64,000 nucleotides of DNA from Candidatus Cloacimonadales bacterium (GTDB taxonomy: Bacteria > Cloacimonadota > Cloacimonadia > Cloacimonadales > JAIOQZ01). The position numbers were made by a program, and so were the translations under genes. The stretch lies in assembly GCA_963662655.2 (NCBI GenBank), contig CAXXTU010000002.1:3072001-3136000 (forward strand), written 5' to 3'. Positions 9,429 to 33,936 of the stretch are shown here, piece by piece. How positions within the stretch are numbered: position 1 is the stretch's first letter; the number at the start of each line of letters is the position of its first letter. Under the pieces are notes generated by a model, which worked only from the letters and a program-made list of their open reading frames with translations, was not told where the DNA came from and ran no database searches.

Positions 9429-9554
9429 GGCGTGGTATCTTCGCCCGATCTGCCGTGCAGACGGGGATATAACACGTCCCTGGGGCTATCGAGCGCAAAA
9501 ATGGGACGTGTAACACCCCGTCTGCACGGCAGATCGAACGAATCTACTCCCGCC
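9429..9554 (-). repeat. dispersed rod-like hairpin element, copy 1 (126 nt)
   Basis: Reverse complement reads GGCGGGAGTAGATTCGTTCGATC...GGTGTTA...TTATATCC...GATCGGGCGAAGATACCACGCC; homologous to copies at 23883, 28640 and 33757. Confidence 0.85.
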
Positions 9555-9572
9555 TCTACGGGAAGTTCCGAG

Positions 9573-9588
9573 TGGCATAAGAGTTGCA
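9573..9588 (+). promoter_or_regulatory. sigma-54 (-24/-12) promoter
   Basis: TGGCATAAGAGTTGCA matches TGGCA-N6-TTGCA (GG-N10-GC), about 40 nt upstream of the peptidase ATG. Confidence 0.6.
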
Positions 9589-9627
9589 ACTATTATTTTG
9601 AAAAGAAATAACATATTGGAGGCTGAT

Positions 9628-12573
9628 ATGAGAAGGATTCATGTTTTGCTTTTTGTTTTGATGTGTGCAACAATGATGTTGCAGGCGGTGGCCCCGGTCG
9701 ATTTCGGCAGGCTGGTGGAGAATTCCCGCAATTTATGCAGGGAGAAGCAGCAGTATGCCGGGCGCTGGATGGAGTATGTGTCTCGCGATACACGGGATAT
9801 GGATAACTACGATGTCCAGTACTACAGGATCAATATGACGCTCGATTTCGAAACGGGATCGATCATAGCCGACAACATCATCGAAGTGATGATTACGGAA
9901 GACAATACACAGTCGATCGAGCTGGAATTCGACGACAGTTTACAGATCACGGATTTGCAGGTGGACGAAGCGACGGCGAGTTTTACGCACGAGGATCGCG
10001 AACTGGTTGTCACGCTTTCCCAAACATACAATGAGGGTGATGTCGTATCGATCAACGTGAAATATCAAGGCAGTCCGGTGATCGACGGCTATCACGGCGG
10101 CGGTTTGTATTTCGCAACGCATGGTGGCGAACCAATAGCGTTCACTTTCGTACAACCCTGTGGTGCGCCGCAATGGTTTCCCTGCAAGGATGTCCCGAAC
10201 GACAAGGCGAATACCGTCGATATCTGGATGACGGTACCGGACGATTATGAACTCGCGGCCAATGGGTTAATTACGGAAGAGGTCGATAACGGCGACGGAA
10301 CCAAGACGGTGAAGTATCACGAATCGTATCCCATCGCGACGTATCTGATTTCGATTGCGTGTACGAATTACGATATCCAGAGCTATACATACGTAACCGG
10401 CGAAACGGAGATGCCGGTGCACAACTTCGTATTTCCCGAGGAACACGATATCCAGGTCGAAACATTCCAGGATATTCTGGAGATGATCGATTTTCTCTCG
10501 GGGATTTACGGACCGTATCCCTTCTTGGAGGAGAAGTACGGGCACGCGTTCGTTCCGGTATTCGGAGGAGCGATGGAGCATCAGACCTGCACAACGTTCG
10601 GGGGTGCGCTTCAGGGAGCCCCATACTATTCAACGGTTTTACATGAATTGACGCATCAATGGACGGGCGACTTGATAACCTGCGATACGTGGGCGTACAT
10701 CTGGCTGAACGAGGGATTTGCCGAATACTCCGAGACGCTCTACACCGAGCACCTCAATGGCTTCGACTGGTATCTCTATCACATGTCGCAGCTCGATACG
10801 GGCGACCTCGACAGCAAGCTGGAGCGAGATATCCTCGATAGTCAGAATGAAGTTCTGGATTGGGTCGTATACGCCAAGGGGGCGTGGGTGCTTCACATGC
10901 TCAGATTCATGCTGGGGGATGAAGTGTTCTTCGATGGGGTGGCCAGCTACACGAGTGATCCCGCTCTGCGTTACGGCACCGCTACGAATGAGGATTTGGA
11001 AGCGCACATGGAGGCGGCAGCCGGCATCGAACTGGACTGGTACTTCGACCAGTGGTATTATCAGTACGGAAGACCAGAATACCGTTATTGCTATTACACT
11101 TCGGTCGTCGAAGATTCGATCAAAATCACGCTGTCGTCGGAGAATACGCAGGACGAGCCATTCGACTTGTATGTGCCTTATAACGTGAACACAACAACAG
11201 GAAGAGTTTGGGCTCCCGGCGGAATCAGTCACTACACCCTCGAGCTCGAAGGGGAATTGGACAGCCTGGTTTGGGATCCGGGTAACCGCATTCTCGATTA
11301 CGGTTTTCACAACATGATACCAGAGCTGGAGGCTCCTGTCAGGCTGCGAGACGCTTCTGTGATGATCGGCCTTCCTGAGTTCTTCGATCCGGACTTTGCC
11401 GGGTATTATGTGTACCGGAGCGAGAATGGATCCGATTGGGACATGGTAACCCCGGAGCCTGTTGAACCGGGGATGTATAACGATGGAAGCGCGGAACCGG
11501 AAAGAACCTATTACTATTGTGTTGCTGCTGTAAGCGGGGAGGATCACACATTCGTCGGACCGAGTTCCAATACGGTTACGATGGAATCTGTCGAATTTAC
11601 ATTCGATCAGGGAATTCTGGCGATCGATATGACGGCCAATTTCCCCGAGAGTTCGCCCATGCCAACCGACGAGGAGACGGACGCGTTTTATCAGGATATT
11701 TTGTCCGAGTACCAAGTCACATGGTGGGACGTAATCGAGGACGGGGATGTGCCTCTTTCCGAGATGGCGAAATACTCATCGATCGTCTTATACTGCGACG
11801 ACATCAATACGATACCGTTCCACGAAGAACTGTATTGCCCGATGGCGTACATGAATGCGGGTGGTAACTTGCTTATATCCTCCTGGAGGCACCTCGAAGA
11901 TTTCAATTACAATCCGTACCGCACCATGCTGCATTTCGATGAATGCCGGTTCAACAACAGTCCTGATTTTGCTGGAACTCTGGCCTATGGCGGTTATCCC
12001 GTTCTCGACGTCGATTCGGAAAAGGTCGAGCTTGCCACGTGGAACGGACTGCTTCCCTACGTGAATTCCATCACGCCTTCCGGGGGTGCCGAAGTTCTCT
12101 ACCGGTACGACTCCGCAAGCGATGATGAAAACTGGGAGAATCAAACATGTGCGATCCGTTTCGCCGGCGATTACAAGCTTTATCTATTGGGATTTCCGCT
12201 GTTCTTCATCCAGAACGAGCAGGCGGAGCAGTTCATGGTTATGGTAATGGACGATTTCGGCGAAGTGCAGGATATTGACGGCGAAGGGATTCCTGCATAT
12301 TCGACATCGCTGAGCAATTACCCCAATCCGTTCAATCCGAGTACGACTGTGCAATTCAGTTTGCAAAGCGGCTGCGAAATCGAGTTGAGCATCTTCAATG
12401 TGCGCGGTCAGAAGATCAAAACGCTTGCGAATGATTATTACGAAAGCGGTTCGCACCAGATACAATGGGACGGAACCGGCTGGGACGGCAAGAAGGTCGG
12501 AAGCGGTGTGTATCTGTACAGACTGGAAACGCCGCACAGCACGATTAGCAAGAAGATGCTTTTGTTGCAATAG
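9628..12573 (+). CDS. secreted M1-family zinc aminopeptidase with FN3-like and C-terminal FlgD-Ig/T9SS-A-like sorting domain
   Basis: Signal peptide, GAMEH, HELTH..18..E ('NEGFAEY'), 'VYAKGAWVLHMLR', C-terminal 'NYPNPFNP'; GGAGG RBS before ATG 9628. Confidence 0.9.
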   Translation: MRRIHVLLFVLMCATMMLQAVAPVDFGRLVENSRNLCREKQQYAGRWMEYVSRDTRDMDNYDVQYYRINMTLDFETGSIIADNIIEVMITEDNTQSIELEFDDSLQITDLQVDEATASFTHEDRELVVTLSQTYNEGDVVSINVKYQGSPVIDGYHGGGLYFATHGGEPIAFTFVQPCGAPQWFPCKDVPNDKANTVDIWMTVPDDYELAANGLITEEVDNGDGTKTVKYHESYPIATYLISIACTNYDIQSYTYVTGETEMPVHNFVFPEEHDIQVETFQDILEMIDFLSGIYGPYPFLEEKYGHAFVPVFGGAMEHQTCTTFGGALQGAPYYSTVLHELTHQWTGDLITCDTWAYIWLNEGFAEYSETLYTEHLNGFDWYLYHMSQLDTGDLDSKLERDILDSQNEVLDWVVYAKGAWVLHMLRFMLGDEVFFDGVASYTSDPALRYGTATNEDLEAHMEAAAGIELDWYFDQWYYQYGRPEYRYCYYTSVVEDSIKITLSSENTQDEPFDLYVPYNVNTTTGRVWAPGGISHYTLELEGELDSLVWDPGNRILDYGFHNMIPELEAPVRLRDASVMIGLPEFFDPDFAGYYVYRSENGSDWDMVTPEPVEPGMYNDGSAEPERTYYYCVAAVSGEDHTFVGPSSNTVTMESVEFTFDQGILAIDMTANFPESSPMPTDEETDAFYQDILSEYQVTWWDVIEDGDVPLSEMAKYSSIVLYCDDINTIPFHEELYCPMAYMNAGGNLLISSWRHLEDFNYNPYRTMLHFDECRFNNSPDFAGTLAYGGYPVLDVDSEKVELATWNGLLPYVNSITPSGGAEVLYRYDSASDDENWENQTCAIRFAGDYKLYLLGFPLFFIQNEQAEQFMVMVMDDFGEVQDIDGEGIPAYSTSLSNYPNPFNPSTTVQFSLQSGCEIELSIFNVRGQKIKTLANDYYESGSHQIQWDGTGWDGKKVGSGVYLYRLETPHSTISKKMLLLQ

Positions 12574-12596
12574 CTTTGTGCGTTCGTTACGTTATG

Positions 12597-12627
12597 GAAG
12601 CCCCGAAGATCGGGGCTTCTCTTTTTT
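12597..12627 (+). terminator. intrinsic terminator
   Basis: GAAGCCCCG-AAGAT-CGGGGCTTC followed by TCTTTTTT after the peptidase stop. Confidence 0.8.
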
Positions 12628-12667
12628 GGGGATGAGCCGACCTGAGGTTGTCTGCCCAGCTTAGCGC

Positions 12668-12773
12668 GGGGGGCGGCGTGTTTGCTGCGCAAACGACTCC
12701 CCTGTTTCGCGTTGGGATTGCCCAACGCGAAACAGGGGAGTCCGGAAGCCTCTGGCTTCCGATGCCGCCCCCC
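12668..12773. repeat. cruciform palindromic element
   Basis: Perfect 22-bp inverted repeat GACTCCCCTGTTTCGCGTTGGG/CCCAACGCGAAACAGGGGAGTC (12695-12742), two side hairpins and a closing GGGGGGCGGCGT/ATGCCGCCCCCC stem. Confidence 0.75.
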
Positions 12774-12884
12774 GAGCGGGACTGTGCTCGGGCTCAATCT
12801 CACGCAACATTTCCATTGACATGAAGATGAGATTGAAAAAATGCTATATGTGTAGCGACGATTTTATACGGGAGGGTCATGTAA

Positions 12885-14159
12885 TTGTATCGAATGAAAT
12901 GGTGTGCTCAAGCCTTGGTTTTTCTGGCCATTGCGGTTAGCGTGGTGGCGCAGGATAGCTGGAATGTGGATTTGGTGTCGCAAACGTATTTCGAGCACGA
13001 TGCACATCTTGAAAACGTGTTGGTAAAAGACAATCTGGCGTTCCTTGTGGACTCAAACACCGGCATTCTCATTTATGATGTATCCCATCCGGCCCAACCA
13101 GTATTTGTGGGCCAATTTTTAACAGTTTCGAGCGCTAGGTGTGTGAGTGTTGTTGGCAATATCATGTATGTCGCGGACGAGGAGTATGGCCTGCATATCG
13201 TGGATGTCGGCAATCCTGCGCACCCGGATTTGGTGGGTGCTTGCGACACGCCCGGCGAGTGCCTCGGCGTGTACGTGCAAGGTGACTACGCCTATATCGC
13301 CGATTCGGGATCAGGTTTACGCATCATCGACGTAAGCGATCCGGTGCTGCCGGTCGAAGTTGGTTCATATTCTCCTGGCGACCACGCGTACGACCTTGTT
13401 GTTTCAGGGAGCTACGCATACATCACGGTCAATGCACTGGGGCTGGTCGTCGTTGAGGTCAGCGATCCCTCGCAGCCTGCGCTTTCGGGATATTTCAATG
13501 GCTGGGGGCCTGTACAGGATGTTCAATTGCATGGAAATAATGCATATATAACAGATACGGCGTACGGCCTCTTCTCGATCGACGTCGGGAATCCGGGTCA
13601 GCCTACCTATCTCGATCACTACGAAAACTCCGGCACGATGCTGGGACTGCATTACTCGGCAGACTATGTGTTTGTCGCAGATTCGGAGTTCGGTTTGTAC
13701 GTGTTCGATGCAACCGATCCATCTTCGCTTGAACTTACCGGATATTACGAAACATCATCGGAAGCCTGTGACGTATATGTCTCAGACAATATCGCTTATG
13801 TCGCCTGTGACGATCATCTGGGAATCTACGACTGCTCGGACGCCATCGGCGTCAATTCGGCGGATGGAGATGCGTCGATCGTAGGCCTGAACTCGATCTG
13901 CAACTACCCCAATCCGTTCAATTCAAGCACGACGATTCAGTACTCCCTTGCCTCATCGGGGAGCGTCAACCTCGGAATATTCAACGTGAAAGGTCAGCGT
14001 GTGAAAACACTTGTCCGTTCGCACCGTGAGGCAGGAGATCATTCCGTTTCCTGGAATGGACTTGACGATATCGGGAAAGCTGCATCCAGTGGGGTGTATT
14101 TCTGTATACTTAAAACAGGCGATGGGATGCAAACAAGGAAAATTCTGCTGATGGAATGA
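12885..14159 (+). CDS. secreted LVIVD-repeat (beta-propeller) protein with C-terminal FlgD-Ig/T9SS-A-like domain
   Basis: Repeats 'AY.AD...GL.IIDVSDP..P..VG', signal peptide, 'NYPNPFN' tail. Confidence 0.85.
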   Translation: MYRMKWCAQALVFLAIAVSVVAQDSWNVDLVSQTYFEHDAHLENVLVKDNLAFLVDSNTGILIYDVSHPAQPVFVGQFLTVSSARCVSVVGNIMYVADEEYGLHIVDVGNPAHPDLVGACDTPGECLGVYVQGDYAYIADSGSGLRIIDVSDPVLPVEVGSYSPGDHAYDLVVSGSYAYITVNALGLVVVEVSDPSQPALSGYFNGWGPVQDVQLHGNNAYITDTAYGLFSIDVGNPGQPTYLDHYENSGTMLGLHYSADYVFVADSEFGLYVFDATDPSSLELTGYYETSSEACDVYVSDNIAYVACDDHLGIYDCSDAIGVNSADGDASIVGLNSICNYPNPFNSSTTIQYSLASSGSVNLGIFNVKGQRVKTLVRSHREAGDHSVSWNGLDDIGKAASSGVYFCILKTGDGMQTRKILLME

Positions 14160-14208
14160 TTTTTTCATACCTCAATCTGAAAATACGAACTGGATACTGG
14201 AGAAGATA

Positions 14209-15990
14209 ATGCCGGGTGTTACGTTGTGCTATGGAAATCCGAGTGATATAGCCGGATTTGTGAATACGTGCCAGAAGAGAGAACGCGAATTACGGGAGAT
14301 ACTTCCGTTTTATTCGTGCGAAATCGAGAAGATCGATCAAAACCTGTGCGTGTTTCTGCATAAGCATTCCGGGCATGACATACACGAACTCTCAACGGAT
14401 CGCTGGACGATTTACTGGGAAAATCCCGTGCGCGAGATCGATCCGGAAGTTGTGAAGGCTGTTTTCGCCGAGTTTGATGAGAATTTCCAATTTGCGGACG
14501 TAAAGCAAACCATTGAACGGAAACTGCAATGCGCGATGAATACCGCGTTCACCTGCATCGCGATTCACCGGCCCCAAAAAACTGTCCTCTTTTTCAATGA
14601 TAGACTCGCTCGTCTTCCGCTCTATCACTATGAGAATAGTAACTTCTTCTTGCTTGGCAGAGACTTCGTGCTCCTGCGCGATAGTTTCAAGGACAGTCGG
14701 ATCGACAGACTTCAGCTTGCTCAATTCATGCTCCTGGGATACGTACCGGGAAAACCTTCGGTCTATGCTGATATACAAGATTGCCGGCCGCAGACATTTG
14801 CCGAAGCGCGTATCGGGAATGAGGTTACCCTCACGATTAGCGACAAGCCTGAAAACCGGGTGCACGGCGAGCTTCAGGAGGTCGATCAAAGCGCCTATCT
14901 GAAGGAACTTACAGATACCTTCCTTGCGGCGACAGAGCGTTGCGCCGGAAAGGACGAGCTGGTGTTGGGCCTGAGCGGTGGTCTGGATTCCAGGGCGATT
15001 GGCGGAGCCTTGCATAAGTTGAGGAAGCATTTCACGTCGTTCACCTACCGCGATCACGACCGCACCGCAACGCGCGATATCCGCTACGCGAAGAAGCTGG
15101 CAAGAAGCTGGAGTTGCCCCTTCCATATCATCGACCTCAATATTGAATCGAATGATGACTGGGCGGCTCTTTTCACGATGAAAGGAGGGGTTAATTACCT
15201 CGGCGTTAGCTTCTTTGGAAAATTTCTCTACGAAGTGCAACGGAGAGTCGGCCACTCCAATTTCGTTTTCTTCACGGGTGACGGCGGTGACAAGGTCATG
15301 CCGGACCTCTACCCGCAAAAAAGCTTGCACTCCGAGAGCGATTTCATCGAGTACCTGTTGAAACGCAACTCTATCCTGCCGCTAAAGGCTGTTTCTCAAG
15401 CGCTTGATATTGAGCCGAATGAAGTTCTCCATGCGCTCCTGAATGAAGTAAAGCAATACCCGGTAGACGGGTGGGATGAGAAATACCGCTTTCTGCTGCT
15501 CGCCGAACGCGGAGGGAGATGGCTGTTCGAGGGAGAGGATCGAAACCGGTTCTTCGCGAGAACGAATACACCGTTTTACGCTTACGATTTCTATCGGCTG
15601 GCCATGCAAGCGCCTCGATCATGGAAGAAGGACAACCGCATGTTCAAAGACCTCCTGAACTCTCTGTCGCCTGTCCTCACGAAGATTCCCAATGCGAATA
15701 CCCTGTTGAGAATCGACGGCAGAGACTACAATCCGATAAACTACTGGAATCTAGTAAATCATCGCGTGTCCAGGAAACTGAATTCGATCAAAAACAGAAA
15801 GGGAAACGGCTATCTGACAACGCACCCGTCCCTGAGGGGCAGAGTTCGCCAGCTCCTTGAATATCCCGAGATTTGTCTGGCTTATCCGGGTTTCGGTAGT
15901 TCTTTTCAGGCGGAAACGCTTTCCATGCTCAACCGTCCCCAGGCATATTACCTTTACACCGTTCTTGCTATCCTCAACGGTCAATCGTAA
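14209..15990 (+). CDS. asparagine synthetase-like protein (ATP pyrophosphatase/amidotransferase family)
   Basis: 'NDRLARLPLYH', PP-loop 'LGLSGGLDSR', 'TGDGGD', 'TPFY'; no N-terminal catalytic Cys. Confidence 0.75.
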   Translation: MPGVTLCYGNPSDIAGFVNTCQKRERELREILPFYSCEIEKIDQNLCVFLHKHSGHDIHELSTDRWTIYWENPVREIDPEVVKAVFAEFDENFQFADVKQTIERKLQCAMNTAFTCIAIHRPQKTVLFFNDRLARLPLYHYENSNFFLLGRDFVLLRDSFKDSRIDRLQLAQFMLLGYVPGKPSVYADIQDCRPQTFAEARIGNEVTLTISDKPENRVHGELQEVDQSAYLKELTDTFLAATERCAGKDELVLGLSGGLDSRAIGGALHKLRKHFTSFTYRDHDRTATRDIRYAKKLARSWSCPFHIIDLNIESNDDWAALFTMKGGVNYLGVSFFGKFLYEVQRRVGHSNFVFFTGDGGDKVMPDLYPQKSLHSESDFIEYLLKRNSILPLKAVSQALDIEPNEVLHALLNEVKQYPVDGWDEKYRFLLLAERGGRWLFEGEDRNRFFARTNTPFYAYDFYRLAMQAPRSWKKDNRMFKDLLNSLSPVLTKIPNANTLLRIDGRDYNPINYWNLVNHRVSRKLNSIKNRKGNGYLTTHPSLRGRVRQLLEYPEICLAYPGFGSSFQAETLSMLNRPQAYYLYTVLAILNGQS

Positions 15991-16180
15991 AACCTTATAA
16001 ATTCTTGAGAAAAGGGATGCCAATGTACCCGCAAAGACAATGAATTCAACTCATTAAATGGCTTCAACCCTATTTAATAGCAGGATGGTACAAGTTTTAT
16101 TTGACAATCTGGGGGCCATTGTGAACATTTAGTGATTTATTTACGATAACATACGTAAGAATACCCTAAAGGAGATATCT

Positions 16181-19483: not shown

Positions 19484-19531
19484 TGTCATGGCAGAAGCAT
19501 GATCAACGTGCTTAATCGATGACATGTACGA

Positions 19532-23795: not shown

Positions 23796-23822
23796 AAAGC
23801 CAGCGGACCCCCGCTGGCTTTG
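23796..23822 (+). terminator. probable (bidirectional) intrinsic terminator
   Basis: AAAGCCAGCGG-loop-CCGCTGGCTTTT downstream of the 19532-23746 ORF. Confidence 0.65.
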
Positions 23823-23882
23823 CCGCTGTAACACGATTCCCCGAGTCAATAACCACCACATTCCCGAATCACTCCTTGCAAA

Positions 23883-24008
23883 GGCGGGAGCAGATTCGTT
23901 CGATCTGACGCGAGAACGTGGTGTTATGCACCTTATCATCTCGTTCGATAGCTCAAAGGTGCATTATATCCACGTTGGAGCGGCATGATCGGGCGAAGGT
24001 GCCACGCC
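23883..24008 (+). repeat. dispersed rod-like hairpin element, copy 2 (126 nt)
   Basis: GGCGGGAGCAGATTCGTTCGATC...CGTGGTGTTATGCACC...GGTGCATTATATCCACG...GATCGGGCGAAGGTGCCACGCC. Confidence 0.85.
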
Positions 24009-24074
24009 GCAATCCAGTAGCACAATTTCAAATAAAAACATTGCCGAAAATACATCGCTCAAGAGAATGGAATT

Positions 24075-24716: not shown

Positions 24717-24725
24717 TATCGTCAG

Positions 24726-25214: not shown

Positions 25215-25318
25215 ACGAAGTCTCGGTTTTGAGTGGTCTGAGAATTGCATAAATATCGATGAAATATATGAAATAGGGAAGTTTTTGCCGGTTGCTGAGC
25301 AACCGAAGGAAATAATTC

Positions 25319-26386
25319 ATGGCGGACGAAGCACAAGAAAAAACTGAGAAACCTACCCCGCGACGCAAAAGCAAGGCGAGGAAGGACGGCAACGTAGCGC
25401 AGAGCCAGGAGGTTCACACAGCCTTCTTTCTGTTTCTGATGTTGCTCTATTTCAGTCTGATGGGCGGCTGGATGATGTCGCAGTTCCAGCTGCACACCGA
25501 TCTGATGCTTCGAGCCATCGGGACGCCAATTACGTTCCTGAGCATACGGGAAATCTACGTCCAGGCAATCAAGTACCTTTTCGTCGTCTTCGCGCCCATC
25601 TCCCTCGTTCTGCTTGTGTCGGCGTTTGTCAGCTCATTCGTCCAGTTCGGCTGGCTCTTCTCGACAAACTCCCTCAAGCTGAAGTGGAATTCCGTGTTCA
25701 ACTTTAAAAACCAGTTCAAGAACATGTTCTCCATGGAAGCGCTTCAGCGACTGGTGAAGAGCGTTCTCAAGCTGGTGATCCTTCTGTTTATCGCCTACAT
25801 GACCGTTCGCCCGAAGTTGCAGGCCTTTATGGCGCTACCGGATATGGAAGTCGCGCAGATTTTCGCGTTTGCCGGAAAGCTGGTTCTGAAGCTCCTTCTG
25901 AACATTCTCATCGCATATATCTTCATCGCAATTGCCGATTTTGCCGTGACGCACTACCTGCACACCAAGAAATTGAAGATGTCGAAATCGGAAGTGAAAG
26001 ACGAGCGTCGGCAGATGGAAGGCGACCCGCAAGTAAAGAACAAGATTCGTCAGCTCATGTTCCAGACGACACTCAAGCGCATGATGGAAAAGGTTCCCGA
26101 AGCCGATGTGGTCATTACAAACCCGATCCATCTGGCGGTGGCGATCCGCTACAACATCCACCAGGACGACGCGCCGGTTGTCGTAGCAAAAGGCAAGAGA
26201 CTTATCGCGGAGCGCATCAAGGAACTGGCGCGACAAAACAATATCCCCATCGTGGAAGATAAACCACTGGCAAGGTTGCTGTTCAAGACGACCCAAATCG
26301 GTCAGCAGATCAGCGTGGAGCTTTACGGAGCGGTCGCTGAAATCCTTGCCTATGTATACAACATGAAGAAAAAGCGAGTGATCTGA
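25319..26386 (+). CDS. flhB: flagellar export apparatus protein FlhB
   Basis: 'EKTEKPTPRR...AR.DG.VA.S.E', four TM segments, 'LKMSK.EVKDE...EGDP..K', autocleavage motif variant NPIH, 'AVAEILAYVY'. Confidence 0.93.
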   Translation: MADEAQEKTEKPTPRRKSKARKDGNVAQSQEVHTAFFLFLMLLYFSLMGGWMMSQFQLHTDLMLRAIGTPITFLSIREIYVQAIKYLFVVFAPISLVLLVSAFVSSFVQFGWLFSTNSLKLKWNSVFNFKNQFKNMFSMEALQRLVKSVLKLVILLFIAYMTVRPKLQAFMALPDMEVAQIFAFAGKLVLKLLLNILIAYIFIAIADFAVTHYLHTKKLKMSKSEVKDERRQMEGDPQVKNKIRQLMFQTTLKRMMEKVPEADVVITNPIHLAVAIRYNIHQDDAPVVVAKGKRLIAERIKELARQNNIPIVEDKPLARLLFKTTQIGQQISVELYGAVAEILAYVYNMKKKRVI

Positions 26387-26387
26387 T

Positions 26388-28472
26388 ATGCTGGACACAA
26401 AGTCTGATCTTCAAGCCAAACTGGCGCGCAAAAGCGACTTCATGGTCGGTGCCGGGATCGTCCTGATCCTGCTGGTCATGATGGTCCCAATGCCCAAGCT
26501 GTTAATCGACATACTCCTGGTGTTCAACTTCATGATGGCGTTCATCATCCTGCTGGCGCCCATCTACATCCTCAGGCCGAGCGAATTTTCCGTCTTTCCC
26601 GGATTGCTCTTGGTCATTACGTTGTTCAGGCTTTCGCTCAACGTGGCCACGACGCGCCTCATCCTGGGCGAAGCGGACGCCGGCGCTATCATCCAGGCGT
26701 TCGGTTCATTCCTGATTCGCGGTAACTACATCGTCGGCCTGATCATCTTCTTGATCCTGTTCATCATCAACTTCAAGGTTATCACCGCCGGTTCCAGCCG
26801 CGTGGCTGAAGTTGCCGCCCGTTTCACTTTGGACGCGATGCCCGGTAAGCAGATGGCTGTCGACGCCGACCTGAACAACGGGATCATCACCGAAGCGGAA
26901 GCACGCAAGATGCGAGACGACATCCGTCGCGACGGAGATTTCTACGGAGCGATGGACGGTGCCGCCAAGTTCGTGAAAGGCGACGCCACCGCCGGACTCA
27001 TCATCACCGTCCTGAACATCATCGGCGGTATCATCATCGGTATGGTTCAATTGAAGATGACTCTTGTGAATGCGCTCCAGACCTATACGATCCTGACGGT
27101 CGGTGACGGACTCGTGGCGCAGATTCCCGCGATTCTCATCTCCTCCGCGACCGGTATCATCGTTACACGTGCCGGCACGAAATCGAACCTCGGCGAAGAG
27201 TTGATCACGCAGGTTTTCAACGAGCCCAAAGCGCTCTATGTGTCCGCAGCGGTGATCGTCCTCTTCGGATTTGTACCCGGAATGCCGTGGTACCTCTTCG
27301 GGCCCATGGGTTTGGGACTCGGGCTTTTTGCCTGGTTCCTCGGGAAATCGATGAAGATGAAGCAGGAAGAAGACGAGCAGGTCGAAGTCCCGGTCGAAGC
27401 CGAGCCGCAGGGTCCTCCGGACATGAGCGAGTACCTTCAGGTCGATGCTCTCGAGCTGGAAATCGGGTACAGCCTCATCTCCCTCGTGGACGAGAACCAG
27501 AAGGGAGATTTGCTGGATCGCATCACCAGCCTGCGAAAACAGATCGCGCTGGAGATTGGTATTATTGTTCCGCCCATTCGCGTTCGTGACAACATTTCGC
27601 TGGTTCCGAACCAGTATCTGATAAAAATTCGCGGTGAGCAGATCAGCTCCGGCGATTGTCTCGTAAACCACTTCCTGGCGCTCGATCCGGGAACCGTCGA
27701 AAAGCCCATCAAGGGCATCGAAACCCGAGAACCCGCATTCGGGCTTCCGGCAATCTGGATTTCGGAAGACAAGAAGGATATCGCCGAGATGCACGGCTAC
27801 ACGGTGATCGAACCCGCCGCGATGATCGCGACTCACATTTCCGAGATTGTTAAGTCCGGCGCGGATCAGATCATTACCCGCCAGGATGTCCAGAAGCTGC
27901 TGGAAAACGTCAAGAAGGACAATGAAGCGGTGGTCAACGAACTCGTACCCGGCATGCTCTCCATCGGCGCGGTCGAGCAGGTTCTCAAGAACCTCCTGCA
28001 CGAAGGCGTCCCCATCCGCGATATGGTGACCATCCTCGAAACGCTCGCGGACTACGCGCCGTTCGTCAAAGACGTCGACTCGCTTACCGAATATGTCCGC
28101 TACGCCCTGGCGCGGACGATTGCCCGAAGGTTCATCGCCAGCGACGGCACAGTCTATGGAATCACGCTTTCGCCGCAACTGGAGCAGCTTATCAACGACG
28201 TCGTGCAGCGCAACAAGCAGAAGCCCGGGCAGGTGAGTATCCCGCCGAACATCGTCAATTCCATGTACGACGACCTCGCCCAGGCAGTCAAGGAGATGAA
28301 CCGGACCGGTCTCCAGCCGTTGTTGATGGTAGCTCCGTCCATACGGCGGTATGTAAAACGGCTGATCGAACCCGCCATCGCGACCCTGCCGGTGATTTCG
28401 TTCAACGAGATTCCCACCCACATCCCGCTGCAATCCCGCATACAGGTCGATCTGGACCCGAAAGCGGCGTAG
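26388..28472 (+). CDS. flhA: flagellar export apparatus protein FlhA
   Basis: 'FSVFP.LLL..TLFRLSLNVATTRLIL', 'RVAEVAARFTLDAMPGKQMA.DADL', 'FYGAMDGAAKFVKGD', 'LELEIGYSLI.LVD', 'T.EPAFGLPA.WI'. Confidence 0.95.
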   Translation: MLDTKSDLQAKLARKSDFMVGAGIVLILLVMMVPMPKLLIDILLVFNFMMAFIILLAPIYILRPSEFSVFPGLLLVITLFRLSLNVATTRLILGEADAGAIIQAFGSFLIRGNYIVGLIIFLILFIINFKVITAGSSRVAEVAARFTLDAMPGKQMAVDADLNNGIITEAEARKMRDDIRRDGDFYGAMDGAAKFVKGDATAGLIITVLNIIGGIIIGMVQLKMTLVNALQTYTILTVGDGLVAQIPAILISSATGIIVTRAGTKSNLGEELITQVFNEPKALYVSAAVIVLFGFVPGMPWYLFGPMGLGLGLFAWFLGKSMKMKQEEDEQVEVPVEAEPQGPPDMSEYLQVDALELEIGYSLISLVDENQKGDLLDRITSLRKQIALEIGIIVPPIRVRDNISLVPNQYLIKIRGEQISSGDCLVNHFLALDPGTVEKPIKGIETREPAFGLPAIWISEDKKDIAEMHGYTVIEPAAMIATHISEIVKSGADQIITRQDVQKLLENVKKDNEAVVNELVPGMLSIGAVEQVLKNLLHEGVPIRDMVTILETLADYAPFVKDVDSLTEYVRYALARTIARRFIASDGTVYGITLSPQLEQLINDVVQRNKQKPGQVSIPPNIVNSMYDDLAQAVKEMNRTGLQPLLMVAPSIRRYVKRLIEPAIATLPVISFNEIPTHIPLQSRIQVDLDPKAA

Positions 28473-28572
28473 GGAAGAGGAAATCGGAGACGAATTGTCA
28501 CGCTGAGTTGCTTCTGTGACATCGGATATACCTAGTGTCTTTTTATATGTTGTGCTGGTCCCATTTTCGTTG

Positions 28573-28597
28573 TGTCATGCTGAGCGGAGTCGAAGCA
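28573..28597 (+). repeat. short REP-like repeat TGTCAYSCTGAGCGNAGTCGAAG (partial copy also at 28496-28507)
   Basis: TGTCATGCTGAGCGGAGTCGAAGCA; same motif at 52780-52805 and 63292-63316. Confidence 0.75.
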
Positions 28598-28639
28598 TAA
28601 AAAATCCCCCCCCCTCCAATTTAAAAGCGAGCCCTGATA

Positions 28640-28821
28640 GACGCGAGCAGATTCGTTCGATCGTCCGCGCAGGCGTGGTGTTGCACGTCGAAAATTCTGC
28701 TTTCGTGTAACGAAAACGATATCTTCGAACGAAAGTTTTTTGCGGAGCGAAATAACGAGAGTGGATTTATAGACGTGCTATATCCACGCTGGAGCGGAAG
28801 ATCGGGCGAAGATGCCGTGTC
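28640..28821 (+). repeat. dispersed rod-like hairpin element, copy 3 (182 nt, with central insert)
   Basis: GACGCGAGCAGATTCGTTCGATC...CGTGGTGTTGCACGTC...GACGTGCTATATCCACG...GATCGGGCGAAGATGCCGTGTC. Confidence 0.85.
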
Positions 28822-28827
28822 GTTCGG

Positions 28828-29844
28828 CTATATCAGGCGGATCCCTTTCGTTGAAAAGGCGTTCAGGTTGAGGTCGGCGAAATCTTCCTGCTTGTACTTC
28901 TCGATGGCTGCGATGGCGATCATGGCCGCGTTGTCCGTGCAGTAAACCGGAGCGGGAATGTACAGTTCAGCGTCCATTTTACGGGCGGCTTTTTGCATCT
29001 CGAACCGCAATAAGCTGTTCGCGGTTACGCCTCCGGCCAGCAGGATTCGCTTGATCTTGTTCTGGCGCGCAAACCGGACAGTTTTCTTCACCAGAGGTTC
29101 TACGATCGCAGCTTGAACGGATGCGGCGATGTCGCTGCGATGCTGCTCGATGAATTCCGGCGTGTTTTTTTCTATGTATTGCATGGCGGCTGTCTTCATG
29201 CCGCTGTAGCTGAAATGGAAGTTGTCATTCTGATCGAGCGCTCGTGGAAAGCGATAGAACTTTGGATCGCCGTTTTTCGCTGCCTTGTCGATGGCCGGTC
29301 CCCCCGGATACCCGAGATCGAGGATCTTCGCAATCTTGTCGAACGCCTCGCCGGCAGCATCGTCCAGTGTCTGCCCGATCAATCGGTAGTCGCTTTCGTC
29401 ATGGAACCAGACCAACTCCGTGTGACCACCCGAGACGACAAGTGCGAGATAGGGAGGCTTCAACTCTGGATGCTCGATTCGGTTCGCGTTGATATGCCCG
29501 ATCATGTGGTTAACCGCAATGAGCGGAATACCGAGTCCCCACGCATAGCTTTTTGCGAAGGATACGCCCACCAGCAACGCACCGATCAAGCCGGGATTGA
29601 CCGATACGGCCACCGCGCAGAGCTCTTCGGGCCTGGTGCCCGATTCTTCCAGCGCTCTTTGCACGATGGGCATGATGTTTTTGAGATGAACGCGTGAAGC
29701 CAGTTCCGGCACCACGCCACCGTACAATTTATGTACTTCCTGCGAGGACACGATATTCGCGTGGACCTTGTAGTCAAGATCGACGATCGAGGCCGACGTG
29801 TCATCGCATGAGGTTTCGATTCCGAGAATCTTAGTCCGTTTCAA
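28828..29844 (-). CDS. tsaD: tRNA N6-threonylcarbamoyltransferase TsaD (probable TTG start at 29844)
   Basis: 'ILGIETSCDDT', 'GGVVPELASR.H', 'NHMIGH', 'VSGGHT', 'DDAAGEAFDK', 'CTDNAAMIA'. Confidence 0.96.
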   Translation of the reverse strand: MKRTKILGIETSCDDTSASIVDLDYKVHANIVSSQEVHKLYGGVVPELASRVHLKNIMPIVQRALEESGTRPEELCAVAVSVNPGLIGALLVGVSFAKSYAWGLGIPLIAVNHMIGHINANRIEHPELKPPYLALVVSGGHTELVWFHDESDYRLIGQTLDDAAGEAFDKIAKILDLGYPGGPAIDKAAKNGDPKFYRFPRALDQNDNFHFSYSGMKTAAMQYIEKNTPEFIEQHRSDIAASVQAAIVEPLVKKTVRFARQNKIKRILLAGGVTANSLLRFEMQKAARKMDAELYIPAPVYCTDNAAMIAIAAIEKYKQEDFADLNLNAFSTKGIRLI

Positions 29845-30790
29845 TTTTCCTGACCTGTATCCTTTCGGGAGTGAATTCGATGATCTTGACATCAGCCGGA
29901 GGATTGAACTCGATCTTTAACTCATCCCCGGTTTTCACACCTTCGAGGTTAACGAATGGGTTCAGTTCCTCTCCATCCATCTCGTCCAGCATGTCTTTTC
30001 GCCCTCTCACGAGCGCCGAAACCTTTTGCGGCATGATCTCGAACTCCGAAGAGCGTGGATTGAAGATGGGAATCAGCGGAATGGTTACGGTAACGTACTG
30101 CGCCGTGGAAATATCGATCTTGATCTTATCGGCCAGAAGCTTCACGGAGGGATCGGGGCTCACGAGCGATACCGTGGCGATGTAGTCTTTCACCATCCTC
30201 TTCGATATCGGCTCGGTCGATATCCGATCAACCGATTTGAGCAATTTCTGAGGCCCCTTAACGTCTACCCGCGATATGTTGATGATCATGTTCTTCTCGT
30301 TGAAATAAGCCCGGTCGTCCGCACTCGCGAAAATCAGTTCCACCGGCTTTTTGACGGTTATCACCTTGTCCAGCCTGATCTCGAGCCATTCCTCGAAGTC
30401 GAACTGCATTTTGTCCGAGCGCATCTCCTTGCGCATCTTCACCGGAACGTAAAGGTCCTCCCGCGTAACTCGAACGGTGTTGCTTCCTTCGGAAAACCGC
30501 TGCGCATCGATGCTGATATACGCGTTGTTGCCCTCGGAAGCTTGCAGGGATGTGTTGTTTCCCTGGAAAAACTGCTGTACCTTGAGCTTGAAGAGGTCGT
30601 ACCCCTTGCCCTCGATCTCAATCTGAATCTCGTCCTGGTTCATGCCGACCAGTATCATATCCTGAGGAATGTCGCGCAGTTTAACCGGCACGCGGAAATG
30701 GATCGTCTGCTCCTTCATGAGTTCCTGTTGGGCCCAGAGGAACACGGCGATCGCCAGCGCGAAGATCTTCAGGAACAAATTCTTTCCCAT
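29831..30790 (-). CDS. YbbR/CdaR-like membrane-anchored protein
   Basis: N-terminal 'NLFLKIFAL.IAVFLW', beta-rich repeats 'V.V.GP..LL', 'P..I.V'; located upstream of tsaD. Confidence 0.75.
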   Translation of the reverse strand: MGKNLFLKIFALAIAVFLWAQQELMKEQTIHFRVPVKLRDIPQDMILVGMNQDEIQIEIEGKGYDLFKLKVQQFFQGNNTSLQASEGNNAYISIDAQRFSEGSNTVRVTREDLYVPVKMRKEMRSDKMQFDFEEWLEIRLDKVITVKKPVELIFASADDRAYFNEKNMIINISRVDVKGPQKLLKSVDRISTEPISKRMVKDYIATVSLVSPDPSVKLLADKIKIDISTAQYVTVTIPLIPIFNPRSSEFEIMPQKVSALVRGRKDMLDEMDGEELNPFVNLEGVKTGDELKIEFNPPADVKIIEFTPERIQVRKIETD

Positions 30791-31019
30791 TGATTATCCT
30801 GTGTTTTTATTCAAATTACATCTTTATAGATACGATTTTTTTTGTCAAAGCGTATTCTGTCATACCTCACATGCGACCCTGCCCCGTTAACCGGTACCGA
30901 CGCTCTTTTTGTAGAACGTCAACTCAGAAAAATATTTACAAAAATTTTCAAGCAATTTAACATTGCCATGTTGGATATATCACAAACTTGATTTGGCATT
31001 GCGAAGACAGGAGGCTCTG

Positions 31020-33746
31020 ATGAAATACCATTCGTTGTTTTTCAGCTTGTGCGTGTTCGCACTTCTTTTTTCTCCCCTATATTCCACCGACGGAAGTGAG
31101 TTCAACGATAATAGCATAAATACATCTCCGATGCCTCTCCTGACAATCTCCGGTCGTTGCGTTGCGAACAGTGAGCCCGACATGGGGCTGGCGAATGTGC
31201 AAATCAGCCTGACTGGATACGAAACGCATCAGACAACCACGGATGGCTCCGGTTTCTTTACGCTGGATAACGTCACCTCGGGCCATACATACGAGCTGAC
31301 GGCATCCCTCTATGGATTCATCGACGGCGTCTTCGAGGTCGTTCTGGAGGATGAAGATATCGATCTGGGGGACATGATTCTCCTAACAAGACCGCCACAT
31401 CCGTCAAATGTTACCGCAACGATCAGTCCGGACTATACTTACGTGACCATTTCATGGTCACTGAACTCGGAGGAATACGTTGAATACCGCTACGATGACG
31501 GTAGTGTTGTCGGTCAGCTCGGATATCAAAACGCGAGCGAAAATGTGCGGCTGGGCTCGGTGCATTTACGTGACGCAGCGATCGATGGCTTGTCCTGGTA
31601 TCTCACGGATGACTTGGTTTCCCATTCAACCGTGAACCTGTACATCTACGGCCTGGACGAGAGCGGAGTCCCCAACGCCGACGATGTTCTCTATGAGATC
31701 ACCGGGGTGCAGAGCGAGGACAACACCTGGAACACACTGGAGATCGAAAATCCTGTTGAAGCTCCCGATGGATTCTTCATCGGAATCAATACGCCGGATC
31801 GGTTTGTTTCTCTCGGCACGGATGACGGGTTTGGCGATCCTTACACATATATCGCAGGAACGCAGTGGGCAACGAATTCTGTTAGCACAAACGAGTGGTA
31901 TACAACGGGTGATCTTGGCTTTCCCAACAATTTAGCGATACGCGCGATGGGGACCGACAACGGCGGGATCGAGCGACCTGTGCAACGCGCAAAGAACAAT
32001 CCGGTTGCGCGGGATGCCGTGCCTGTACGGATCGATGGCCATCGCATGAAGACTCAATCGGACCATGCAAACTCGACGAGTCTTGCCGGATCGCAGGAGC
32101 GATCTGCGCCGCGGAACGATCGTACTTTGCACTACGCTGTATACCGTGTGGAGGAAGGGGATGAGGATGATCCGAGTAACTGGGAATACCTTAACGAAGA
32201 CGAATTCCCTTATTCTGACACAACGTATGTAGATACGGACTGGCCAGTGTATGGGATTTTCTGCTGGGCTGTGATCGCGTATGATAACGGGATTATGAGT
32301 GAGTGCGGTTTCTCTAATTATATTCCCTATACACCGTCATATTATGTCGAGATTAATGTAACAACCAATTCCGGCGACAGCCCGATCGACGCTTTCTACC
32401 GGTTCGAGAATCATGATGGAGACGAGAATCACCTCTACACCGGTCAGGTTCCTGCAAGTGGAACGGTTTTCCTGCCGGCGGTCTGGTATGGCATGTATGA
32501 TTTAACTGTTCGCAAGCCGGGCTTTGATGATTACGAAGCGCTCAATCTGATCGTCGATGATCCCGAGAATGGCAGCGAATTCGATGTGGAGCTTATCGAA
32601 ACGTTGCTGCCTGTCGAGTATGGTTATTATGAGGTCGATGGTGGTATGCTGATGATCTGGTGGAACCCGCCGGATCCATATAGCGGAGAGGAATTTACGG
32701 AGGGATTCGAGGAAGGCGACCTCCTTGAAGGCTGGATTGCTACGGGCGTTTCGACCGACGAAAGTCAAACCGAGCCTTCCTACTTCCATGTCACCGATTA
32801 CGAAGGTGATACATTCAGTCCTTTGGGATCGTATCATGCAGGGCTCTGGTGGTCGGAAGAGCATCAGGACGAATGGCTGATTACCCCTGAGTTTATATGC
32901 GATTCCGATACCTACATCAACTGGAAATGCGTTGCGTACGAAGGCTCAACGCATAACGACCACTATTATTTGAAAGTCTCCACCAACGGCGGTTCGAGCT
33001 GGGACACTCTCTGGGATGCATCGGAGCTGAGTGGCGGATGGAACTACTACGATTATGCGTATGATGTAAGTCTCGGCGAATACAATGAACAGAACATCAA
33101 AGTCGCATGGCACTGTGTGGATGGCGATTCGAATGATGGATTATGGTATAGCTTCTTCGTGGACAACATTACCGTTAGCAATGGCAGAAACATCATCCAT
33201 TTCGATGCAAAGGACCTGGCGCAAGAAACTCGATCGGGCAAGGCGAAGAAAGCGGCGAGCGCCTCGCGTGACCGCCATCTGCTCGGTTATCGCCTCACCA
33301 GAAACAATCTCCCACTTGAAGACCTCTGGGAAGAGAATGAGTATATCGACGAAGACGGATTCCCGGGATGCGTTTATCATGTTTATGCCGTGTATTCCAC
33401 AGGGGAATCAGAGCCCTTTATTATCATAATACCCCATGGAACTAACGACGACGATGCCGTGCAAATCTCAACCAAGCTCATGGGCAATTGCCCCAATCCC
33501 TTCAACCCTGAGACGCGCATCGATTATTCGCTGTCCACGCCGGGTATGGTCTCGCTCGATATCTACAACACGAAGGGGCAACTCGTGAAAAGGCTGGAGA
33601 ATACGCGTCGCGATGCCGGTAAATACAGCGTGATATGGCATGGCGATAACGATTCGGGTAAGTGCGTCGCTTCAGGAATCTACTTCTGCAATCTGAAGGT
33701 GGATGGAAAACAGCTCGGTATGATCAAGATGGCTTTATTGAAGTAG
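31020..33746 (+). CDS. secreted multidomain protein (carboxypeptidase-regulatory-like, cleaved-adhesin-like, C-terminal FlgD-Ig/T9SS-A-like domain)
   Basis: Signal peptide after GGAGG RBS; 'TTTDGSGFFTL', 'EGFEEG', 'DEWLITP', 'VSTNGGSSW', 'GNCPNPFNPET'. Confidence 0.8.
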   Translation: MKYHSLFFSLCVFALLFSPLYSTDGSEFNDNSINTSPMPLLTISGRCVANSEPDMGLANVQISLTGYETHQTTTDGSGFFTLDNVTSGHTYELTASLYGFIDGVFEVVLEDEDIDLGDMILLTRPPHPSNVTATISPDYTYVTISWSLNSEEYVEYRYDDGSVVGQLGYQNASENVRLGSVHLRDAAIDGLSWYLTDDLVSHSTVNLYIYGLDESGVPNADDVLYEITGVQSEDNTWNTLEIENPVEAPDGFFIGINTPDRFVSLGTDDGFGDPYTYIAGTQWATNSVSTNEWYTTGDLGFPNNLAIRAMGTDNGGIERPVQRAKNNPVARDAVPVRIDGHRMKTQSDHANSTSLAGSQERSAPRNDRTLHYAVYRVEEGDEDDPSNWEYLNEDEFPYSDTTYVDTDWPVYGIFCWAVIAYDNGIMSECGFSNYIPYTPSYYVEINVTTNSGDSPIDAFYRFENHDGDENHLYTGQVPASGTVFLPAVWYGMYDLTVRKPGFDDYEALNLIVDDPENGSEFDVELIETLLPVEYGYYEVDGGMLMIWWNPPDPYSGEEFTEGFEEGDLLEGWIATGVSTDESQTEPSYFHVTDYEGDTFSPLGSYHAGLWWSEEHQDEWLITPEFICDSDTYINWKCVAYEGSTHNDHYYLKVSTNGGSSWDTLWDASELSGGWNYYDYAYDVSLGEYNEQNIKVAWHCVDGDSNDGLWYSFFVDNITVSNGRNIIHFDAKDLAQETRSGKAKKAASASRDRHLLGYRLTRNNLPLEDLWEENEYIDEDGFPGCVYHVYAVYSTGESEPFIIIIPHGTNDDDAVQISTKLMGNCPNPFNPETRIDYSLSTPGMVSLDIYNTKGQLVKRLENTRRDAGKYSVIWHGDNDSGKCVASGIYFCNLKVDGKQLGMIKMALLK

Positions 33747-33756
33747 CTGCCCGAGA

Positions 33757-33936
33757 GTCGTGAGCAGGTTCGTTTGATCTGGCGCGAAGACGTGGTGTTA
33801 TGCATCCTATTTTCGGCTTTGCGAAGCGAAGCGAAAACATGAGCGTTGTGATTTCAAACAATGAAATCATGTTAGCGGATAATCAGGTGCATTATATCCA
33901 CGTAGGAGCGGCAGGATCGGACGAAGATGCCACGAC
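33757..33936 (+). repeat. dispersed rod-like hairpin element, copy 4 (180 nt, carries a nested second element)
   Basis: GTCGTGAGCAGGTTCGTTTGATC...CGTGGTGTTATGCA...TGCATTATATCCACG...GATCGGACGAAGATGCCACGAC. Confidence 0.85.

Follow-up and report, generated by a model that had tools for sequence, protein, structure and literature searches.

Related repeat systems

REP, REPIN and BIME sequences, which go with TnpA-REP (RAYT), are gene-less hairpins located 3' of genes as singlets, doublets and mosaics, with conserved mismatches, strand-specificity, a short conserved foot and no target duplication (PMC8266576, PMC3733652). The REP of E. coli requires its conserved mismatch bulge and a single strand (PMC8266576). 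The ends of IS200/IS605 are strand-specific hairpins with a replication-linked orientation and without duplication (PMC5027513, PMC3971601), and their active strand lies on the lagging-strand template (PMC5027513). The attC sites of sedentary integrons are imperfect hairpins with extrahelical bases and a variable terminal structure, whose better-folding, recombinogenic strand lies on the leading-strand template (PMC5371416). ERIC/IRU and Bacillus bcr1 repeats, of 127-155 nt, are dispersed near gene 3' ends and keep a long fold by compensatory changes; their termini are inverted repeats, accompanied by duplications of TA or of 5 bp, and ERIC and bcr1 are present in, or act upon, transcripts (PMC3184786).

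The rod-shaped repeats described here, four of which lie in the window (64,000 nt of contig CAXXTU010000002.1 from a Candidatus Cloacimonadales bacterium), are best read as REPIN/ERIC-like in behaviour. Like REP/REPIN they are gene-less hairpins 3' of genes, single, doubled or in mosaics, with conserved mismatches, strand-specificity, a short conserved foot and no target duplication, but their foot has no GTAG or CGTC tag, only a weak CGA in the source genome and CCT in its congeners (GYAG sits inside the rod, as GCAG in ~106 of 130 copies); their arms are asymmetric instead of two inverted short REPs, their replichore bias is strong, and no RAYT is flanked by a rod, as the Y1 counts below show. 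With IS200/IS605 they have in common the strand-specific hairpin, the replication-linked orientation and the missing duplication, but there is one rod instead of two ends and no TnpA, and, should the better folder be the active strand, the template is the opposite one, a difference that weighs against movement as single-stranded DNA. They match attC in the imperfect hairpin, the extrahelical bases, the variable terminal structure and the template strand of the better folder, but lack IntI, the R-box consensus, the unpaired central spacer and a cassette array, and their primary sequence is strongly conserved; the 3' tail fits G(G/T)T loosely, without an AAC partner, and 80-95% of copies have the neighbouring 6 bp paired. 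They recall ERIC and bcr1 in size, dispersal, closeness to gene 3' ends and compensated fold, but have neither terminal inverted repeats nor duplications.

A lead on kinship, compared by eye, is offered by Geobacter metallireducens, whose Gmet_R1001-R1024 (also GSU0160.1) were listed in 2009 as 'predicted short RNA elements' and are uncharacterised (PMC2700814). These ~113-nt multicopy intergenic rods show, in the reverse complement of several copies, box-1-like CAGATT..AAGATG ends and a central CGCAGGCGT..ACGTCGAG that resembles the rod spacer stem. They differ in phylum, in their number (24 copies) and in a central palindrome, GRCGTAGCGCTGCTACGCC, which takes the place of box 2 and the loop and does not occur in any of the four window copies or in the aligned set. 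Two rod motif strings and one metagenome-type string had no match in the main text of papers.

The repeat family in the window and in the genus

Four intergenic copies, two of them of equal length (126 nt), had been proposed by the sequence-only reading, and the sequence and the list of open reading frames bear out their coordinates and strands (Table 1); a covariance-model search of the window recovers all four and no additional copy. An independent second repeat, module B, occupies the long loops of copies 3 and 4. That reading recognised no known family, and Rfam agrees, with no match in the window at the gathering cut-off and five weak ones within E 10, all of them away from the copies.

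Table 1. Positions of the rod copies and their parts within the window
Feature	Position	Strand	Evidence or partner	Neighbours or remarks
Rod copy 1, 126 nt	9429..9554	-	covariance model, 122 bits	divergent glycosyltransferase gene; T9SS-domain aminopeptidase gene
Rod copy 2, 126 nt	23883..24008	+	covariance model, 112 bits	co-directional spacer; TPR-flhB-flhA genes come next
Rod copy 3, 182 nt	28640..28821	+	covariance model, 102 bits	flhA and tsaD, convergent
Rod copy 4, 180 nt	33757..33936	+	covariance model, 83 bits	T9SS-domain gene; convergent sigma-54 activator gene
Box 1, left arm, copy 2	23890..23905	+	sequence and pair counts; partner arm 23987-24002	
Box 2, left arm (GTGG-TGTT), copy 2	23918..23925	+	sequence and pair counts; partner arm 23965-23973 (TATAT-CCAC)	
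Module B, loop of copy 3	28693..28768	+		ends approximate
Module B, loop of copy 4	33810..33880	+		ends approximate

The genome-wide search that had been suggested finds at least 132 two-armed intergenic copies in the source genome (G000), including those of the window. Congeners hold at least 33 (G001), 33 (G002) and 59 (G003) at distinct places, with 150 candidates scored per genome and reverse-strand duplicates taken out. Present in 3/3 congeners and in none of 148 further genomes examined within the class, the family is a genus-wide set of gene-less rod-shaped repeats. Four pattern matches outside Cloacimonadales failed to score as members, one in viral contigs was ruled out (E 0.35), and the phage and plasmid records searched gave no real match. 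Identity to the nearest neighbour within the family reaches at most 94.5% (median 83.5%), so that there are no recent copies; nearest relatives lie less than 10 kb apart 7 times, against 0.8 expected.

Fold, boxes and the origin of the covariation

Rods are mostly 110-190 nt long, with asymmetric ends (a short conserved 5' foot and a weak 3' tail) and two near-invariant non-canonical boxes, kept at a near-fixed spacing by ~12 bp of free-sequence stem. In copy 2 the left arm of box 1, which follows a bulged A, runs from a 3-bp stem through a tandem G.A, TTCG and two T.G wobbles to CGATC, and box 2 pairs as a bulged T, T-A, G.T, T-A and a T.T mismatch. The tandem G.A and the G.U pairs would suit RNA equally well, which counts against a reading as mobile single-stranded DNA. 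The four window copies fold better than dinucleotide shuffles, with z-scores of -7.1 to -12.7 as RNA and -5.3 to -12.3 as DNA, and in 4/4 the strand named in Table 1 outfolds its complement. Genome-wide the named strand is the better one in 128/130 copies as RNA and 121/130 as DNA, by ~14 kcal/mol and by ~4 of 38 kcal/mol, respectively; the wide RNA margin is a further point against mobile single-stranded DNA.

The base changes read earlier as compensatory are present in the sequence, both in the outer stem (GGCG/CGCC, GACGCG/CGTGTC, GTCGTG/CACGAC) and further in (GCA/TGC versus GTA/TAC, CACGTC/GACGTG versus TGCACC/GGTGCA, CGGGG/CCCCG versus CGTGG/CCACG). In the larger alignment covariation backs one fold: it beats 500/500 shuffles on four of five measures and 499/500 on the fifth, and is higher than in all six slid registers. 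In 43 disjoint sister pairs, for which loop similarity was the sole selection criterion, both sides had changed with pairing kept at 167 positions, whereas the expectation for double changes, paired or not, was 67. The single-stranded fold proposed earlier, whose unpaired or wobble patches are conserved, is supported.

Transversions make up 70 of the 147 Watson-Crick swaps (48%) and 113/195 in loops, and the 28 of 117 spacer stems that are fully paired comprise 26 distinct sequences. In a paralogous doublet, 92.6% identical, the left arm is now the exact complement of a nearly unchanged right arm. At one orthologous G002/G003 site both spacer-stem arms differ and pairing is kept, and a short subfamily carries box 2 with its arms swapped, an arrangement that inversion of a duplex would not produce. 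Because about half of the swaps are transversions and at least one arm has been rewritten from its partner, selection need not lie behind every compensatory change, and rod covariation may stem from arm copying. For ncRNA discovery this is a warning that paralogous hairpins can covary strongly without RNA selection.

Orientation and the proposed mode of spread

The orientation of the rods tracks replication more than transcription. In 95 of 127 source-genome copies (p = 2e-8; origin placed at a DnaA-box cluster) and in 32/33 in G001, the strand that folds better serves as leading-strand template, as it does in 52/57 copies of one subfamily. It persists in convergent and divergent spacers (48/64, p = 8e-5), so that transcription cannot explain orientation there. 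With the strands so close in stability as DNA, plain hairpin stability is a weak cause; another hairpin family of the source genome is also skewed, 18:4, and part of the rod bias may therefore be general. Two of its IS families have no clear strand bias (7:4, 5:4). Module B stands at ~8:6 relative to replication (profile matches plus one further site; a looser pattern, false matches included, gave 16:17).

The explanation given slightly better than even credence is that of a non-autonomous mobile element; a strand-specific trans-acting enzyme is predicted to recognise it at the fork as folded single-stranded DNA, and small mobile elements moved in this form are likely, rather than RNA genes. 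The model proposes that one rod strand folds while single-stranded, and that a protein reads boxes 1 and 2 while remaining indifferent to stem sequence. Strand-dependent insertion, often near the parent, or removal would leave the better-folding strand on the leading-strand template. Arms would be homogenised, one being copied from the other, with many compensatory changes as the outcome, and copies without boxes would cease to spread. Analogy with REP and with the ends of IS200/IS605 points to an HUH/Y1-type enzyme as the likeliest candidate, which may have disappeared from the source genome. The copy number of 132, together with empty orthologous sites, supports the mobile element suggested earlier; the missing target duplication, the strand bias, the signs of arm copying, the swapped box 2, the closeness of nearest relatives and the E. 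coli REP requirement also speak for the model. The family bears on the spread of REP-, REPIN- and ERIC-type repeats and on whether their compensatory changes signal RNA function, and its testable handles are a replichore bias as high as 32 to 1, a pair of invariant mismatch boxes at near-fixed distance and visible arm-to-arm copying.

It could be argued instead, with limited plausibility, that the rods are functional structured RNAs or cis-acting 3'-UTR elements (RNase III substrates, stabilisers or bidirectional terminators) held by selection on RNA structure. Their strong covariation and the part ERIC and bcr1 play in transcripts speak for this, as do a median distance of 25-35 nt to the stop codon and a placement in which copies are scarce in divergent spacers (9/132 versus ~26% of spacers in G000) and plentiful in convergent ones (57/132 versus 16%; home-made gene calls with approximate starts). 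Selection against insertions, however, would equally produce promoter-region avoidance, the replication bias holds where both strands or neither are transcribed, and in co-directional spacers of the main contig the better-folding strand is antisense in 42/63. The sites are also mostly unconserved: the rod is absent from G001 at 9/9 spacers with conserved gene adjacency, and only 26/99 orthologues of flanking genes adjoin a rod in G000. The structured ncRNA family first envisaged is less well supported: the covarying single fold stands, but the replication-linked orientation, the mostly antisense co-directional copies and the mostly unconserved loci weigh against it.

The search for a mover

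No Y1, Y2, IS110, integron integrase or intact RT fits as the mover, and the HUH or RT enzyme suggested earlier was not found in the source genome. Y1 is absent there, and rods come no closer than 5 kb to any of the 11 congener Y1 genes (read at 6 loci, which carry other repeats, and judged by coordinates at 5). The Y2 search was negative in five genomes, its control being equally silent. IntI does not exceed the TIGR02249 cut-off in any of eight family genomes. The two best tyrosine recombinases of the source genome we take to be of the XerC/XerD type; a XerD-type gene adjoining one rod was put down to chance, since 252 of 2922 called genes adjoin one. Among further candidates, with proximity to rods checked roughly (as for Y2), IS110 occurs in G002 only, and DUF559 is missing from the source genome and the four-helix-bundle IVP from G001; neither among these nor for GIY-YIG, likewise checked roughly, nor in any other class named did a rod-flanked gene common to the genus stand out. 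The ends of one multicopy IS, the one compared in full, are unrelated to rod ends. Identifying the mover would add either a new strand-specific DNA enzyme or a host enzyme in a new role.

Slightly less probable than a functional RNA is movement through an RNA copy, in which the rod would be transcribed, fold, and enter the fork by reverse transcription or template switching; copying of the hairpin during reverse transcription would yield the compensatory changes. The better RNA fold of the named strand agrees with this, and so does module B, which lies on that strand in the 20 long copies searched for it (that strand alone) and follows the sense strand when free-standing. Retro-insertion of group II introns can be fork-oriented, a further point in its favour. 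Against it, the sole RT of the source genome has an internal stop and G001 has none, there is neither A-tail nor target duplication, and copy 2, the one copy examined, has no promoter-like or terminator-like site nearby.

Insertion sites and gene adjacency

The empty sites in G001 answer one half of the suggested comparison of orthologous loci; as to the other, no target duplication is found in 130 + 51 copies, nor any direct-repeat signal beyond the self-complementary outer stem. Three presence/absence sites aligned between G002 and G003 are all confounded by other repeats or rearrangement, so that none is a clean empty site at base resolution, and contigs from sequencing runs, from the same sample or near-empty, gave no empty site. 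Compared with the guide and cleavage-site tetranucleotides of IS200/IS605, the approximate rod ends show a short foot and a CAAT/CCAT/ACAT-like tail, weakly conserved. The idea of insertion at the sister fork was rejected (rho 0.00). A few rod sites are common to different species; together with the missing mover, recent copies and clean empty site, they count against the mobile single-stranded DNA reading.

It is rather improbable that the rods are dispersed attC-like sites, folded single-stranded DNA with which a site-specific recombinase inserts cassettes and shuffles operons. The strand rule, the extrahelical bases and the variable terminal loop are those of sedentary integrons, interiors differ at one orthologous site, and in G001 two near-identical rods flank an orphan ORF. 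Gene adjacency is also kept less often at rod spacers than at matched ones (9/34 versus 17.3 expected in G000, 3/18 versus 7.7 in G001). This breakpoint excess, however, is missing in convergent spacers alone (3/16 versus 3/17) and is explicable by ordinary homologous recombination or operon boundaries. Besides the missing IntI, the rods lack both a RYYYAAC/GTTRRRY pair and an unpaired central spacer, and stand singly among housekeeping genes. A search for long rods enclosing a gene was negative in G000 and in the 53% covered of G001, and rejoining of breakpoint genes by a G001 rod was dismissed, the 26/99 flanks being close to the rate expected at breakpoints. A doubtful extension would make the rods a new class of single-stranded DNA element, attC-like without an integron, in which a recombinase, possibly a housekeeping one, would read both mismatch boxes on the folded strand at the fork, spread rods, capture foreign genes between them and shuffle operons throughout the genome, box 1 being a cross-phylum recognition module also present inside MITE shells.

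Least credible is an ordinary MITE interior with decayed terminal repeats and target duplications, its orientation and perfection due only to host replication errors and purifying selection: minority-orientation copies do fold worse, and box 1 lies inside a MITE-like shell at 14 metagenome loci (TTA/TTA or TAA/TAA flanks matched in 10 of 13 complete copies), but the rod ends are asymmetric, no duplication occurs in 181 copies, the stems turn over while the boxes stay uncorrected, and a doublet moved with its ends flush to its rods. Box 1 is common to the rods and the MITE-wrapped metagenome elements, and target duplication is confined to the distant metagenome type.

Architecture and distribution of the rod

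The rod, a dispersed intergenic hairpin repeat, is on balance probably a non-autonomous element that is handled, at the replication fork, as single-stranded DNA in its folded form; this reading fits best. Rod orientation follows replication, sites come and go and stems turn over. Replichore bias together with arm copying is what makes the family worth following. The four window copies described in the sequence-only reading are present and, as it held, all lie between ORFs, beside mutually unrelated genes (glycosyltransferase, T9SS-domain proteins, flhA, tsaD and a sigma-54 activator). Their folds are unbranched, with z-scores between -7 and -13 for RNA folding and between -5 and -12 for DNA folding, and the fold is real and strand-specific. 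That reading did not recognise the rod as a known family, and it has no Rfam entry: Rfam gave no match at the gathering score, none of its weak matches falls on a rod copy, and the motif strings are absent from the main texts of the papers searched. A near-perfect 48-nt hairpin also stands between two T9SS-domain genes (window 12695-12742), where a weak miRNA-family match merely reflects its palindrome.

Arm profiles run over the 3.81-Mb genome containing the window (G000), with left and right arms paired up, located 133 places, 132 of them longer than 80 nt; rods mostly measure 120-140 nt, with a second class of 180-190 nt and a maximum of 400 nt, and their pairwise identity never exceeds 94.5% (nearest-neighbour median 83.5%). 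When 185,579 species genomes were scanned with a pattern, 27 stretches emerged, 23 of them in three Candidatus Cloacimonadales MAGs; the remaining four obtained no score in a covariance model built from 28 copies. In the three congeners of G000 this model located at least 33 (G001), 33 (G002) and 59 (G003) separate places; in 148 further genomes of the class, with 22 candidates scored in each, it located none.

Two near-invariant non-canonical patches, boxes 1 and 2, interrupt stems of variable sequence, and the box 2 arms are exchanged in one short subfamily. Long loops are occupied by a second repeat, module B, which consists of small hairpins with C-GNA-G loops and is also free-standing in tandem arrays (periods of 73 and 92 as measured in congeners, units 98-99% identical). 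At eight G000 sites it starts, on the sense strand, at most 4 nt from the stop codon of a gene with a T9SS-type C-terminal motif at its end, and it is likewise placed after such genes in the congeners.

Features of the rod and associated loci (C2, G000 contig; L numbers, individual loci; counts out of 117 refer to those of 130 rods with both boxes anchorable, so that the ones for box 2 are partly by construction)
Feature	Position	Strand	Detail
Window rods	9429-9554 (-), 23883-24008, 28640-28821, 33757-33936 (+)		
5' foot	outermost		CGA, weak
Outer stem	inside 5' foot		6 bp, paired in 79-95% of copies, sequence variable
Bulged A	inward of outer stem		
Box 1	after bulged A		3-bp stem, tandem G.A, 11-bp stem with two T.G wobbles, these kept in 100/117 and 102/117
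Free-sequence stem	between box 1 and GTGG/CCAC		arms 11-13 nt in 109/117
GTGG/CCAC	inward of free-sequence stem, just before box 2		
Box 2	after GTGG/CCAC		bulged T, T-A, G.T, T-A, T.T mismatch; each in 113-117 of 117
Inner stem	inward of box 2		8-9 bp, then variable loop
3' tail	3' end		weak; ends CAAT, CCAT or ACAT
Module B	window 63465-63584	-	
Module B	G000:C2 184463, 494005, 606883, 772613, 1274011, 2347089, 2446360, 3160081		
Module B	L043, L045-L052		
Skewed hairpin repeat	window 28574, 52781, 63293	+	starts GTCATGCTGAG; ~45 G000 matches
Rod doublet	G000:C2 2349458-2349742 and 2468378-2468660		ends flush to rods
Further opposite-orientation rod pairs	G000:C2 13781, 89999, 1230306, 2254764, 3341168		
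RT-domain gene	L007:1141-2700		only one in G000; one stop codon interrupts
Two multicopy IS	G000:C2 365544-366891 and 475670-477005, with copies		12 and 8 copies, >99% identical

Orientation relative to replication

Rod orientation tracks replication. GC skew and a cluster of DnaA boxes put the G000 origin at 2.768 Mb and its terminus at 0.809 Mb. In 95 of 127 rods of the main contig, the strand that folds better reads as the lagging strand, which makes it the leading-strand template, and it has this template role in 32 of 33 rods of G001, whose replichores were assigned from twenty 20-kb samples. The bias is present in convergent or divergent spacers (48/64), and antisense preference in co-directional spacers adds at most a weak extra effect (p 0.075). 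Subfamilies differ (52/57 in one, 34/53 in another), and rods in the minority orientation fold more poorly. Either insertion or the loss of opposite-orientation copies could be the source of the bias. As strand controls in G000, two IS families gave 7:4 and 5:4; another hairpin family is skewed 18:4, and therefore strand skew is not specific to the rod. One copy of the GTCATGCTGAG hairpin sits directly before the third window rod.

In G000, convergent spacers are favoured (57 of 132 rods against a background of 16%) and divergent ones avoided (9 of 132 against about 26%). In 7 cases, with 0.8 expected, nearest-related rods are no more than 10 kb apart; for sister-fork position no effect is seen.

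Turnover of the stems

The compensatory changes claimed from the window copies extend to 28 copies, in which 175 cells changed on both sides, compared with 61 in shuffles and 19-38 in slid registers. In 43 disjoint pairs of sister rods, picked solely by loop sequence, 167 positions were double-changed with pairing kept and 110 changed on one side with pairing broken; if the two sides changed independently, 67 double changes, paired or not, would be expected. Transversions make up 70 of 147 Watson-Crick swaps, near the loop value of 58%. Stepwise selection on RNA usually passes through G.U, favouring transitions. That the rod is a functional RNA is unlikely. In a paralogous doublet with 92.6% identity across 285 nt, the left arm of one copy is the exact complement of its right arm, and the right arms of the two copies are one base apart; both arms of that stem also differ, with pairing intact, at a site orthologous between G002 and G003. 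From the transversion share, the rewritten doublet arm and this stem difference, we infer that, while the rod is folded, one arm is copied from its partner, boxes 1 and 2 escaping, and that rod stems turn over in this way.

Turnover of sites and the search for a mover

Rod sites also come and go. The orthologous empty sites proposed as a check were found: among 34 rod-bearing spacers of G000 with both flanking orthologues in the G001 sequence compared (2.08 of 3.89 Mb), nine keep their adjacency, and all nine are rod-free in G001. Target-site duplications, for which that comparison was proposed, did not appear: no direct repeats surround 130 G000 and 51 congener rods beyond the self-complementary outer stem. 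Certain sites are common to different species; G002 and G003, the closer pair, yielded no clean empty site, and their rods are embedded in mosaics with other hairpin repeats. Conserved adjacency was lower at rod spacers than at ones matched for orientation and length (9/34 versus 17.3 expected in G000; 3/18 versus 7.7 in G001), a result that is no more than suggestive, since convergent spacers alone show no excess of loss and the gene starts used are approximate. Gene order between G000 and G001 is shuffled in few-kb blocks, and orthologous DNA is about 70-80% identical. A 313-aa ORF without a G000 match is bracketed, in a cassette-like arrangement, by a pair of short, nearly identical rods in direct orientation (G001:C1 444741-446219).

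The HUH or RT mover suggested earlier finds no candidate in G000, which has no Y1 transposase and whose single RT has an internal stop; spread of the rod via RNA is decidedly unlikely. A Y2 search of G000 gave no match, its control also being silent. None of the 11 Y1 genes of the congeners has a rod within 5 kb, and the six inspected have other repeats, and no rod, alongside; several are RAYT-like and flanked by REP-like repeats or arrays (L064, L065, L067, L070, L071, L072). The mover may have been lost from G000, since this genome holds no recent rod copy. Of its two multicopy IS, presumably ISL3-like and IS3-like, the 12-copy one lies within 70 nt of a rod in three copies. Several related prophage regions, which we take to be Mu-like, recur in G000.

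Neither IntI nor IS110 was found in G000. It is very unlikely that rods are recombination sites; they follow the same strand rule as the attC sites of sedentary integrons (PMC5371416) but fail attC membership. As a non-autonomous single-stranded element, the rod would behave much as REPINs and IS200/IS605 ends do (PMC8266576, PMC5027513), but it fails membership of each. The opposite-orientation pairs in G000 resemble REPIN/BIME.

Wider relatives

Fourteen metagenome loci retrieved with a two-arm pattern, and selected for box 1, all match the covariance model (24-40 bits) and have no box 2. They are enclosed by terminal inverted repeats of about 20 bp, and 10 of the 13 copies that are complete have a matching TTA/TTA or TAA/TAA on either side. 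The same MITE-like shell occurs with a different interior on a Desulfosarcina plasmid, which suggests Desulfobacterales-like hosts for the metagenome elements; two rod interiors that differ from each other occur within one shell. The short shell loci (L074-L087, L088:2868-3032) showed no transposase. A decayed MITE is a highly improbable account of the rod. The terminal inverted repeats themselves covary among copies of this shell family. Among 24 elements listed for Geobacter metallireducens as 'predicted short RNA elements' (PMC2700814), some can be recognised by eye as sharing the ends of box 1 and the motif of the central stem.
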